DNA of 64,000 nt, taken from NCBI RefSeq assembly GCF_003334785.1, contig NZ_QOWV01000010.1; one strand, 5' to 3'. Shown piece after piece: positions 34,664-37,018 of this stretch. The number at the start of each line of letters is the position of its first letter. Position 1 is the stretch's first letter. The DNA is from Escherichia coli. GTDB taxonomy: Bacteria; Pseudomonadota; Gammaproteobacteria; Enterobacterales; Enterobacteriaceae. A program made the position numbers and the translations under genes. The notes under the pieces were generated by a model that was not told where the DNA came from, did not search any database, and worked only from the letters and a program-made list of their open reading frames with translations.

Positions 34664-34862
34664 AATTATAATAAATATTATTGTTGAGTGTTATATTATT
34701 ATTCCTGTGTGATACATTGAGCAAAGACGCGTTCATCTTCGTCAAAGATATTATTAAATGCTGGTTTTGAAAAAAGTTCATCGGATAAGATATAGTCACG
34801 AAATAAGTATCTGCTAATATTTTATGATTTCTTTTTCAGAACGTCGAACGGGATTTTCTTAT

Positions 34863-35018
34863 TTAAGATATCAGAATCTTATGATTCGGGTAAAATTCTA
34901 AATAAATCAACATGTCATTAAAATCATCATAGCCATTAGCTATTTCGGCTAAAATAGAGACTACATGTCTTCGGTCCATCTCACTTAAGGAGTGTAGTTC
35001 CGTTGTAAGTTTTTCCAT
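34863..35018 (-). CDS. 51-aa small ORF (possibly yrhD)
   Basis: Hand-translated from minus strand: MEKLTTELHSLSEMDRRHVVSILAEIANGYDDFNDMLIYLEFYPNHKILIS; below the ORF-track size cut-off; no strong Shine-Dalgarno; name from memory of a 51-aa K-12 gene in this neighbourhood, uncertain. Confidence 0.35.
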   Translation of the reverse strand: MEKLTTELHSLSEMDRRHVVSILAEIANGYDDFNDMLIYLEFYPNHKILIS

Positions 35019-35112
35019 AGCTTGCACTGCTAAATTTCGAACAAGGAATTTTCTGCTGGTAATCTCTAAAAAGATGGCATGGTTTACAATGATTTTTGTT
35101 TCCTTTTGATTA

Positions 35113-35607
35113 TTATGAACAACTGTCCATGATTTCGTTTAAGAATGAAGAGAAATCACTAAACGAACTGAATATATTTTCTGTGCCAATATTATCTCTA
35201 ATTTCAAAAAAGTTACTTTTAATGTCATAAGTAAATATTGAAATGCTATAATCCCCGATCACTAACCGTTCTTGTAGATCAGGGTTTATGAAATCATCAT
35301 TATTTCTATAAAATTCATTTACGGCAAAAAGGTTTTTAACTGAAGGTTCTGGAATCGAGAGGCTAAATAATCGTAATCCATTAACTTCGAATCCATCCAT
35401 TGCTCTTAAAAAAGTAAGATAATCAGGTTGATTCTTAAAAAGAATACTAACTTCATTACATAACTTCTCCAGGCAATTAGTTGAATTAGAATTAAATTCT
35501 ATTTGGATTATACTTTCAATAAATGATTCCTTGAGCGGTGCTTCAAATGGATAGTCTAAATCATTCATCATTTTTATTAATTTATTTATTTGGGTTTTAG
35601 TCATCAT
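35113..35607 (-). CDS. yrhA: Candidate immunity protein for the upstream Hcp-HNH toxin (yrhA-like)
   Basis: 164-aa ORF in AT-rich DNA; start codon overlaps the stop of the upstream toxin-like gene (ATGA); acidic composition; immunity role is inference from gene context. Confidence 0.7.
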   Translation of the reverse strand: MMTKTQINKLIKMMNDLDYPFEAPLKESFIESIIQIEFNSNSTNCLEKLCNEVSILFKNQPDYLTFLRAMDGFEVNGLRLFSLSIPEPSVKNLFAVNEFYRNNDDFINPDLQERLVIGDYSISIFTYDIKSNFFEIRDNIGTENIFSSFSDFSSFLNEIMDSCS

Positions 35608-36782
35608 TTTGTGTGGTCCATAATATTTTTCATGGGAGGATAAATTGAGCCAGATGGAATGGCCCAGGGAGTGATTTTGCTTTCACCTACTAATATTCCC
35701 TTAGCTATTCGTGATTGCATGTTAGTAAAAACTTTATGATATGGTTCGTTTTCGATTAATACTAAATTTTCGAAATCATTAGTACCACCATCATCTAGAG
35801 ATAGTTTATGGTGAACATTATAATTTAGAGGAACATTGCCCTTTCTCATTCTTAAAAGGTCTTCGGCGTTGAATCTTCCAGATGCTTCGGAGGTTTTTGC
35901 AAGTTTGATAAGAAAATTTTTTCTTACAGTTTTATTAAACTCCTTTCGTAAGTTAGCTAAGTCTTTTGAAGGTCTCTTAATGTATATTATTTCTATTATG
36001 TCTATACCATCAAGAAGTTTTTGTTGACCTCTAAGTTTGCCTAAGTAACTATTTATTTCTGTATATGTATCAACATTAGAACGCTTTGTTAAAAGAATAG
36101 ATGCTGTTGCTATCGCTATGCCCGCTGTTTTTTCATTTAGTATTTGATCATAGCCTTTTATTGCATCTCCACCCAGTTTTTCCGCAGTATCTCTGAATCC
36201 TTCAATGTTCCCATTGTATACGCCACCAGCAGCAAGTAGCCTGCCAATAGCTTTGCTGTTTAACGTTTTGAAACGATTATTTGTTTGGTTTTTTGAATTT
36301 GGTAAAAACAAACGGTTATAATTTTCAGGGAGTGCCAAATAGCTGAACTCGGTATTTGCGATAAGATGTTGACAGAGGATAAATTCATAACTAATAGTTA
36401 TTGTTTCTGTATCCAGTTGGTTTTCAATGATCTGGTGATGAATAGCCGATAAAAAAGCGCCTCTTAGTTGTATATAATAATACTTTTCCAATCTACCAAA
36501 TCTATTTATTCGATAGAAGTCAAATCCCATAAATAATTGTTCATTATTGTTAATGGAATTAATAAATAATGGAGTGCTTTTATCAATTAATTTACAAAAT
36601 GTTATACCATGGAACTGTGAACCAAGCCCCGTATTATTAATATTATTTAAGAGTGAGAATGTAAATATTTCATCCTCATGCCCGCTCTGCCAACGATTAC
36701 CTGTAGACTCAGAAGTCCCACAACCTGCGGAGATGCTTCCTTGTTGTTCTCCCGTTACTGTCAGGTAAACAATATTACTCAT
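35604..36782 (-). CDS. yhhZ: Hcp-like domain fused to C-terminal HNH-type nuclease (candidate orphan T6SS effector, yhhZ-like)
   Basis: 392 aa; N-terminal half resembles Hcp/TssD by my reading (MSNIVYLTVTGEQQG...); C-terminus carries an HNH motif (NVHHKLSLDDGGTNDFENLVLIENEPYH); AT-rich codon usage unlike neighbours. Confidence 0.8.
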   Translation of the reverse strand: MSNIVYLTVTGEQQGSISAGCGTSESTGNRWQSGHEDEIFTFSLLNNINNTGLGSQFHGITFCKLIDKSTPLFINSINNNEQLFMGFDFYRINRFGRLEKYYYIQLRGAFLSAIHHQIIENQLDTETITISYEFILCQHLIANTEFSYLALPENYNRLFLPNSKNQTNNRFKTLNSKAIGRLLAAGGVYNGNIEGFRDTAEKLGGDAIKGYDQILNEKTAGIAIATASILLTKRSNVDTYTEINSYLGKLRGQQKLLDGIDIIEIIYIKRPSKDLANLRKEFNKTVRKNFLIKLAKTSEASGRFNAEDLLRMRKGNVPLNYNVHHKLSLDDGGTNDFENLVLIENEPYHKVFTNMQSRIAKGILVGESKITPWAIPSGSIYPPMKNIMDHTK

Positions 36783-36986
36783 CCCTGAAAAGTCCTTTTA
36801 TGGCATGCTATTTTATCAATGGCAATATTATGCTTGTTAATTGTTATTTATTTACTCCAGGAAATTGTAGGCGTATATATTAAAAAATAAAATATTACAC
36901 TTTAGGAAGTAATTATGAGTTAAATCTCAATATATGTATTGGGCAAATAAATACCTTAAAGGAAGGTATGTCGATTTTGAATGACA

Positions 36987-37011
36987 CCCTTTTTCCATCT
37001 CAGAAAAAGGG
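36987..37011. terminator. Hairpin CCCTTTTT-N9-AAAAAGGG just downstream of yhhY stop
   Basis: Perfect 8-bp arms read directly, 8 nt from the yhhY stop codon on the minus strand; no clear U-run on that strand. Confidence 0.4.
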
Positions 37012-37018
37012 CACTATC

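Follow-up and report, generated by a model that had tools for sequence, protein, structure and literature searches.

The yhhZ-yrhA islet between ggt and yhhY of Escherichia coli: a probable type VI secretion effector-immunity cassette, interrupted by IS1E in K-12

Gene content, composition and edges of the islet

We analysed a 64,000-nucleotide stretch of Escherichia coli DNA (assembly GCF_003334785.1, contig NZ_QOWV01000010.1), called the window below, and in particular the AT-rich islet that carries yhhZ, yrhA and yrhD between ggt and yhhY. The genes ugpC, ugpQ, yhhA and ggt are followed by yrhB, yrhD, yrhA and yhhZ, and these by yhhY, the RyhB small RNA, yhhX, yhhW and gntR (Table 1). The yrhB gene sits outside the AT-rich core yet within the variable segment between ggt and yhhY, and some strains carry it alone. 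Very probably, the islet yhhZ-yrhA(-yrhD) is a horizontally acquired, AT-rich two-gene cassette for an effector and an immunity protein of a type VI secretion system (T6SS). The element is already known, and the window shows its common wild-type form. Composition, boundaries, domains, catalytic residues, gene pairing, population frequencies and the IS1 difference were computed directly.

Table 1. Features at and around the yhhZ-yrhA islet (positions in the window; aa, amino acids)
Feature	Position	Strand	Description
ggt	32572..34341	+	gamma-glutamyltransferase; core left flank, outside the islet
ggt terminator hairpin	34349-34372		directly after ggt
yrhB	34379..34663	-	94 aa; Imm35 predicted immunity-protein family; 45.6% G+C
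AT-rich spacer yrhB-yrhD	34664..34862		28.1% G+C; left edge of insert at 34676/34677 relative to the yrhB-only haplotype
yrhD	34863..35018	-	annotated 51-aa open reading frame; doubtful gene
yrhA	35113..35607	-	164 aa, intact; predicted SUKH-fold immunity protein (ETI1)
Unoccupied IS1 target 9-mer TTTAATGTC	35218..35226		single copy in the window
yhhZ	35604..36782	-	392 aa; predicted Hcp-ET1-type effector
yhhZ, Hcp/TssD tube domain	36342-36782	-	aa 1-147; followed by linker
yhhZ, toxin domain	35607-36275	-	aa ~170-392
yhhZ, HNH (His-Me finger) catalytic core NVHHKLSLDDGGTNDFENLVLIENEPYH	35736..35819	-	aa 322-349
AT-rich gap 5' of yhhZ	36783..37018	-	presumed promoter region; AAGGA Shine-Dalgarno sequence 10 nt before the ATG
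Hairpin, 9-bp stem	36988-37012		yhhY-side end of the gap
yhhY	37019..37507	-	GNAT N-acetyltransferase; core right flank, outside the islet; NF007527 equivalog, E=1e-112
RyhB small RNA	37658-37722	+	between yhhY and yhhX, outside the islet; Rfam RF00057, 83 bits (gathering score 55)

The G+C content was 31.8% over 34664-37018, compared with a mean of 53.5% (standard deviation 2.2%, minimum 48.6%) for 1,139 other segments of the same 2,355-bp length, giving a z value of about -10. All 400-bp segments spanning 34600-37199 had a G+C fraction of 0.28-0.36, and both flanks had 0.50-0.58. The islet is the sole low-G+C tract of the 64 kb; elsewhere every 1-kb stretch reaches at least 42%. The difference extends to third codon positions, where the G+C fraction was 0.24-0.26 for yrhA and yhhZ against 0.57 for yhhY. 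The edges were placed by comparison with other E. coli haplotypes. Homology between the window and a haplotype with yrhB only stops at 34676 and restarts at 37021; for a haplotype with an empty site, it stops at the ggt stop codon (34341) and restarts at 37017. These breakpoints put the AT-rich insert proper at about 34677-37020 and make yrhB a separate, nested occupant.

The sequence-only reading had drawn the islet between core genes from 34664 to 37018, within about 13 bp (left) and 2 bp (right) of these breakpoints, and both the significantly higher G+C content of the flanks and the existence of genomes with an empty site, with yrhB only or with another occupant agree with it. It had also called the 236-bp gap upstream of yhhZ extremely AT-rich. 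The gap is indeed AT-rich (29.7% G+C), but not more so than yrhA (28.5%) or the spacer between yrhB and yrhD. There is practically no probability that the drop in G+C arose by chance or as an artefact and marks no biological unit: this reading is already refuted by the z value against all other segments of equal size and by the match of the islet edges to gene boundaries and to the haplotype breakpoints of other genomes.

YhhZ is a predicted Hcp-fused HNH nuclease

The N-terminus of YhhZ (residues 1-147) matched TIGR03344 with E=3.8e-34 and 118 bits (cutoff 58.9). The protein also matched PF05638 (E=2.5e-11) and Hcp3 and Hcp chains in the PDB (E=2e-11 to 3e-9). At the other end, residues H324, H325, D330, D331, N335, N339 and H349 were invariant in 20 YhhZ homologues, down to 36% identity. 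An AlphaFold2 model of the toxin domain had a predicted local distance difference test score (pLDDT) above 87 over model residues 101-210 (YhhZ aa ~268-377), the HNH core included. The C-terminal ~80 residues of the model matched the DNase domains of pyocin S2, pyocin AP41 and colicins E7 and E9 (Foldseek probability 1.0, root-mean-square deviation 2.3-2.9 Å), and YhhZ has been placed in group 32 of the His-Me finger nucleases (PMC5714182). Thus, the gene that had been called a toxin gene from its sequence encodes, by domain, catalytic residues and modelled fold, a predicted Hcp-HNH nuclease effector.

The YhhZ of the window is identical in 391 of 392 residues to the protein encoded at the same yhhY-ggt locus of E. 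coli 55989. The main cluster of 392-aa YhhZ contains 13,190 member sequences, and many clusters of truncated YhhZ also occur in the protein database. A protein cluster search found only one family with the YhhZ-type C-terminal domain (CTD) in E. coli. In nearly all of 40 sampled genomes yhhZ is annotated as intact, and the copy in the window is full-length with all catalytic residues present.

Outside the enterobacteria, the nucleotide sequence of the HNH core (35732-35822) resembled HNH genes of Bacillus and Cytobacillus plasmids (75-78% similarity over ~85 nt). Several of these plasmid genes are annotated as LXG polymorphic toxins of type VII secretion systems; the same catalytic core is apparently used by toxin systems of Gram-positive bacteria.

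YrhA is a predicted SUKH-fold immunity protein

The yrhA start codon overlaps the yhhZ stop codon by 4 nt (ATGA, 35604-35607), and this overlap suggests translational coupling of the two genes. YrhA scored 122.1 bits on NCBIfam NF038335 (cutoff 55), and a profile of the YrhA family matched PDB entry 2icg at E=0.0013; a sequence search of the PDB with YrhA returned nothing meaningful. Among 36 aligned members of the family, distant ones matched SUKH-clan models at E<=0.001, with 7 matches to SMI1_KNR4, 5 to SUKH_6 and 3 to SUKH_5. The AlphaFold2 model of YrhA had a pLDDT of 88.8 and a predicted template modelling (pTM) score of 0.85, and its top five Foldseek matches in the PDB were all SUKH proteins: 2prv (YobK), 3d5p, 2icg, 2pag and Knr4 (6qbq), with probabilities of 0.93-1.0 and template modelling (TM) scores of 0.48-0.62. 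The family is small, with 61 cluster representatives among 1.84 billion proteins. YrhA of the window is identical to its 55989 counterpart in 162 of 164 residues.

Pairing of the two genes was followed in other genera. The YhhZ CTD is joined to three N-terminal regions, namely Hcp, DUF8093 (PF26362) and a third sequence in Pantoea. The Hcp-fused version occurs in E. coli and Citrobacter, and the DUF8093-fused version, whose CTD is 62% identical, in Enterobacter and relatives. A YrhA homologue comes next after the toxin in E. coli, C. koseri, C. freundii, Enterobacter, Pantoea and metagenome contigs, and the toxin/immunity identities fall together (99/99, ~70/68, 62/58 and ~50/30%). In all contexts examined, the gene after the toxin encodes a YrhA homologue that has diverged in step with the toxin. 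Together with the structural matches above, this predicts that YrhA has the SUKH fold and is the cognate immunity protein of the YhhZ nuclease.

The Hcp-fused toxin and its partner occupy the same yhhY-ggt site in C. koseri, C. freundii and two metagenomic Enterobacteriaceae contigs. The C. freundii site also holds an Imm35 gene that is 71% identical to yrhB. In a comparison of E. coli with C. koseri, identity was 93-96% for the flanking proteins, 85% for YhhY, 74% for YhhZ and 64% for YrhA. The cassette is AT-rich in every host examined.

Some of these relatives have notable surroundings. The C. freundii site is an expanded array at the same hotspot (our locus L019, 3845-7539), with a 294-aa open reading frame without Pfam match, the Hcp-HNH gene, a YrhA-like gene, an 85-aa open reading frame, the Imm35 gene and an 83-aa open reading frame. 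In Enterobacter roggenkampii and metagenomes (L012-L015, 6001-7663), the HNH domain is carried on DUF8093 and followed by the YrhA homologue, 58% identical; in some DUF8093-HNH contigs the pair adjoins a phage-type integrase and an AAA_15 ATPase gene. In Pantoea dispersa (L023, 5001-6581), the toxin with the third N-terminus and its YrhA-like partner (30% identical) lie among genes of the type found on integrative and conjugative elements (ICE): TraG-D_C, DtrJ-like, Plasmid_RAQPRD and DUF3438. This position suggests that the cassette can travel on conjugative elements.

Comparison with K-12

The window is colinear, in reverse orientation, with 3.556-3.619 Mb of the K-12 strain MG1655, where the order is yhhY-yhhZ-yrhA::IS1E-yrhD-yrhB-ggt. 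The two differ by 15 substitutions and one indel over ~63 kb, not counting a sixteenth entry, at 35217, which is spurious and stems from the IS1-junction overlap. The MG1655 IS1E (768 bp, 3583428-3584195) lies within yrhA, which is annotated as a pseudogene, and is flanked by the duplicated 9-mer TTTAATGTC. It splits yrhA after codon 130, so that the last 34 residues of YrhA are lost. The islet of the window lacks IS1 and has one copy fewer of the 9-mer; otherwise its identity to the K-12 islet is 100%. A search of the whole 64-kb window returned no IS1 sequence.

The sequence-only reading had stated that an IS1 copy disrupts yrhA in K-12 and had read yrhA of the window as one intact open reading frame of 164 aa, free of IS1, from a strain or state with the module intact. 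Alignment of MG1655 to the segment proved the statement on K-12 right, RefSeq naming the copy IS1E and the reference yrhA not being intact; the other statements hold as well. The window is not MG1655, and the intact state is the ordinary, wild-type one.

How ordinary it is was seen in a survey of 5,426 complete E. coli genomes, in which an islet carrier was defined by at least 80% of the 34300-37250 segment. The islet was present in 3,758 genomes, and the exact K-12 IS1 junction in 358 of the 5,426; the genomes listed with this junction bear K-12-type strain names and are mostly laboratory derivatives. The intact allele is thus ordinary and wild-type, and the K-12 laboratory strains are atypical, with a lineage-specific IS1E. 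The allele of the window would be the ancestral and complete one.

We considered whether the window might instead come from a K-12 derivative from which IS1 had been removed, by precise excision or in an engineered strain free of insertion sequences. Identity of the islet to MG1655, except for IS1 and one 9-bp copy, is what such a strain would show. However, the 15 substitutions and one indel lie elsewhere in the window and include a base missing from MG1655 glpR. Over 24.9 kb around the islet, many isolates from humans, poultry, pigs and wild birds match the window at a listed identity of 100.0%, and the islet occurs in 3,758 genomes but the K-12 junction in only 358. On the MG1655 substitutions and the wild-isolate matches we rejected an IS1-excised K-12 derivative, which we regard as extremely improbable.

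Two details of this comparison concern other loci. The glpR gene, annotated as a pseudogene in MG1655, is one base longer in the window (at 58190), and the window glpR is probably the intact allele. By colinearity with MG1655, the start of the window (1-230) falls inside the 5' end of rhsB, a polymorphic-toxin locus.

Occupancy of the ggt-yhhY site and decay of yhhZ

In 986 of the surveyed genomes the site is empty, and 57 bp with one hairpin separate the stop codon of ggt from that of yhhY. Another 343 hold an unrelated AT-rich (31% G+C) segment with a DUF4225 gene, and these are mostly labelled O157:H7. A haplotype with yrhB alone (L004) also occurs at the site, and yhhY was found in every E. 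coli haplotype examined. The segment between ggt/yrhB and yhhY is therefore an accessory, variable spot.

The O157:H7 occupant (L005, 1579-3397) contains a 303-aa DUF4225 gene, and all 343 copies are at least 99% identical to one another. The possibility that it corresponds to the 294-aa open reading frame of C. freundii was rejected, the two being unrelated.

In two pathogenic lineages the toxin gene has decayed. In avian pathogenic E. coli (APEC) O2:K1:H7, yhhZ is a pseudogene with a stop at codon 267 (L008, 1605-2783), and in O145 it is a pseudogene with a frameshift and stops (L009, 1604-2786); yrhA is intact in both. A decayed toxin next to an intact immunity gene fits the general pattern in which immunity outlasts the weapon. 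Between divergent alleles, dN/dS (the ratio of nonsynonymous to synonymous divergence) was ~0.4-0.5 for yhhZ and 0.1-0.3 for yrhA, from small counts.

These findings raise the question of whether the islet is a decaying relic, in which, without a compatible T6SS, only yrhA and yrhB would be useful, against neighbours armed with Hcp-ET1 (the published name of the effector, see below), and yhhZ would be drifting to a pseudogene. The two pseudogenes beside intact yrhA, the many truncated YhhZ clusters and the higher dN/dS of yhhZ all point this way, as does a review according to which K-12 and B laboratory strains are without T6SS genes (PMC6730261), taken with the small number of differences between the window and K-12. 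On the other hand, yhhZ of the window is full-length with every catalytic residue in place, it is intact in nearly all of the 40 sampled genomes, its main cluster is that of the 392-aa protein with thousands of members, and a dN/dS below 1 indicates continuing purifying selection. We regard the relic as a possible but doubtful account.

Regulation

A G+C content of ~32% in a genome of 53% would make the islet a natural target of H-NS, probably with low expression. Published data place H-NS on the K-12 islet. A study of K-12 "promoter islands" lists a segment internal to yhhZ and a segment of yrhA (position 3581031 in its coordinates), both marked as predicted foreign DNA and as H-NS-bound in two independent data sets (PMC3661553, Table 1). 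Genomic systematic evolution of ligands by exponential enrichment (SELEX) in K-12 gave a site for RpoD in the interval from yhhZ to insA-6 and a mark for H-NS close to yrhD (PMC3946193, Table 3). Transcription from the yhhZ promoters of K-12 enters IS1E and raises its transposition (PMC12428005).

The sequence-only reading had proposed the 236-bp gap as an H-NS-silenced promoter. H-NS binding within the islet of K-12 agrees with this in part, but the published sites are internal to yhhZ, at its junction with yrhA and close to yrhD and do not point to the gap in particular, and the yhhZ strand of the gap has no good sigma-70 match. On the yhhZ strand a relaxed scan of the gap gave sigma-70 matches of 8/12 at best, which are not conserved in C. 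koseri; the gap as a whole is shared by the E. coli alleles, but only patches of it are conserved in C. koseri. Over 34300-37700, a consensus scan found 15 promoter-like sites, compared with 12.4±3.8 in shuffled sequences. The hairpin at 36988-37012 (~25 bp), 3' of yhhY, is most likely the yhhY terminator.

The islet thus resembles the AT-rich xenogeneic islands that are silenced by H-NS, its G+C content being ~21 points below that of the genome, and its yhhZ and yrhA segments are themselves among the K-12 promoter islands. It differs from such islands in being very small (2.3 kb, two or three genes), in having no mobility genes and in the read-through into IS1E that was reported for K-12; silencing of the yhhZ promoter is presumed.

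Mode of action and alternatives

Secondary sources identify the orphan Hcp-HNH of E. coli 55989 and of O104:H4 C227-11 as Hcp-ET1, with ETI1 as its immunity protein, and describe killing by the HNH DNase, neutralisation by ETI1 and dependence on T6SS2 (PMC6730261, PMC6099711, bioRxiv 10.1101/2024.03.05.583533); STEC004 is a further strain in which Hcp-ET1 was studied. We adopted this mechanism because of the near-identity of the window pair to that of 55989 and because of the gene anatomy. For Hcp-ET1/ETI1 all of these sources cite Ma et al. (2017, Virulence 8:1189). Both cases concern the same gene at the same locus, with an N-terminal Hcp domain, a C-terminal HNH DNase and the immunity gene directly downstream, and we see no substantive difference; the 64 kb of the window contain no T6SS genes. 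Where a compatible T6SS exists, YhhZ (Hcp-ET1) would become part of the Hcp tube and be injected into adjacent bacteria, in which its colicin-type HNH DNase would degrade the DNA of the target cell. YrhA, whose gene is coupled to yhhZ, would protect the producer and its sister cells by binding and neutralising the nuclease. In this scheme DNase toxicity, neutralisation by YrhA and T6SS2-dependent delivery, and likewise H-NS silencing, are inferred or taken from the literature.

YhhZ shares with colicins E7 and E9 and pyocins S2 and AP41 the His-Me (HNH) finger fold of its core and, in its predicted role, the design of a secreted antibacterial nuclease with a co-encoded inhibitor. It is only 17-28% identical to them, and ~100 extra conserved residues (aa ~170-270, GRLLAAGGVYNGN...) with no PDB match precede its HNH core. 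Its delivery would depend on fusion to a T6SS tube protein, not on receptor and translocation domains, and the modelled YrhA has the SUKH fold, whereas the colicin and pyocin inhibitors are of the four-helix Im7/Im9 type. With SUKH (SMI1/KNR4) proteins such as B. subtilis YobK (2prv), YrhA shares its structural matches and the position of its gene directly after a nuclease toxin gene; it differs in escaping the Pfam SUKH models and in forming its own NCBIfam family, NF038335.

A module that acts inside the cell and needs no secretion, be it toxin-antitoxin, addiction or anti-phage, could also consist of overlapping, co-transcribed nuclease and inhibitor genes on an AT-rich, mobile-looking islet, and some Enterobacter DUF8093-HNH copies do have an integrase gene and an AAA_15 ATPase gene as neighbours. 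Such a module is nevertheless very improbable here. PADLOC matched none of YhhZ, YrhA, YrhD and YrhB (0 families), the N-terminus of YhhZ is a bona fide Hcp tube domain, and the literature reports T6SS2-dependent delivery (PMC6099711). Moreover, the intact toxin gene of K-12 stands next to a truncated immunity gene, a state that a classical addiction module would not permit if the toxin were expressed.

Several points weigh against the T6SS effector-immunity cassette as we describe it. With regard to the proteins, the Pfam HNH match of YhhZ is weak (E=0.013), and an older paper on "evolved Hcp" calls the domain a "degenerate" HNH (Blondel et al. 2009, PMC2907695); given the invariant HNH residues and the match to the DNase fold, this label appears too pessimistic. 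YrhA had no match in Pfam even at E<=10 and falls below every Pfam SUKH model. The identification of YhhZ of the window with Hcp-ET1 runs through statements of 99% identity in secondary sources and through the single CTD family of E. coli, and is to that extent presumptive. No T6SS apparatus genes are present in the 64-kb window, to which the reported absence of T6SS genes from K-12 and B laboratory strains may be added.

With regard to acquisition, no integrase, tRNA, insertion sequence or flanking repeat accounts for the arrival of the islet: the genes between ggt and yhhY include no integrase or transposase, a search for flanking repeats or att sites gave only short AT-rich chance matches, and in an Rfam scan of 34000-38200 RyhB, outside the islet, was the only RNA gene, with no tRNA. 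The islet thus lacks the features of an integrase- or transposase-borne genomic island. A search of a plasmid collection gave no evidence of a plasmid-borne copy; the full-length matches were misfiled E. coli chromosomes only, and the rest were short matches to the HNH core. Since Hcp-fused versions occupy the same locus in Citrobacter, the "insertion" may also be ancient, and some of the empty sites may stem from loss of the islet. With regard to expression, the scan of 34300-37700 found no sigma-70 site of at least 9/12 on the yhhZ strand in the 236-bp gap, and the measurable transcription from yhhZ into IS1E (PMC12428005) indicates that the operon is not fully silent.

Implications for K-12

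The islet would be a small cassette for interbacterial warfare, carried by most E. coli, and the K-12 reference is atypical in that IS1E breaks the immunity gene, which is worth knowing where K-12 serves in T6SS assays as the prey or as a supposedly "neutral" competitor. In the model, the K-12 truncation of YrhA removes two core strands and the terminal helix. A broader proposal is that a portable HNH-SUKH cassette is used in at least three chassis, that the ggt-yhhY site is a long-lived "armoury" hotspot of Escherichia and Citrobacter, and that consequences follow for K-12; we consider it a speculation that is unlikely to hold as a whole. If it were true, K-12 would survive an intact toxin beside truncated immunity only through poor expression of the toxin, and relief of silencing would select for loss of the locus. 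A deletion of yhhZ-yrhA arose as a secondary mutation in a clone of an MG1655 topA mutant (bioRxiv 10.1101/2024.10.07.617030). K-12 would also be specifically sensitive to E. coli armed with Hcp-ET1, to which the strain of the window would be immune.

The finding is mainly a correct identification and opens no new question. Modest leads are that the HNH-SUKH pair recurs behind DUF8093 and behind an ICE-linked N-terminus, that the hotspot is shared across genera, and that K-12 has retained an intact toxin gene next to truncated immunity. Annotation is also concerned, as RefSeq labels the gene tssD/Hcp. One paper assigns the conversion of methionine to cysteine to "yhhZ-yrhAB" (PMC3309015), in apparent confusion with the B. 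subtilis names yrhA and yrhB.

Neighbouring genes

YrhB matched Pfam PF15567 (Imm35) with E=4.6e-23 over residues 5-83 of 94, and yrhB would be a separate immunity-type gene of the Imm35 family in the same hotspot. The yrhD gene is annotated in MG1655 and other genomes, and it has internal stops in B2-type alleles (L008, L010). YrhD had no family matches, its only matches among 5.8 billion proteins were near-identical ones from E. coli, and the small open reading frames of C. koseri and C. freundii contained no counterpart; yrhD is probably not a conserved gene. On the same three grounds, we rejected the idea that YrhD is a recognisable remnant of a displaced immunity gene.

The yhhY gene is a core gene of unusual diversity beside the hotspot. 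Its synonymous divergence (dS) among E. coli strains is 0.11-0.36, against ~0.05 for the islet genes next to it when these strains are paired in the same way, and between E. coli and C. koseri YhhY is less conserved (85%) than the neighbouring core proteins (93-96%).

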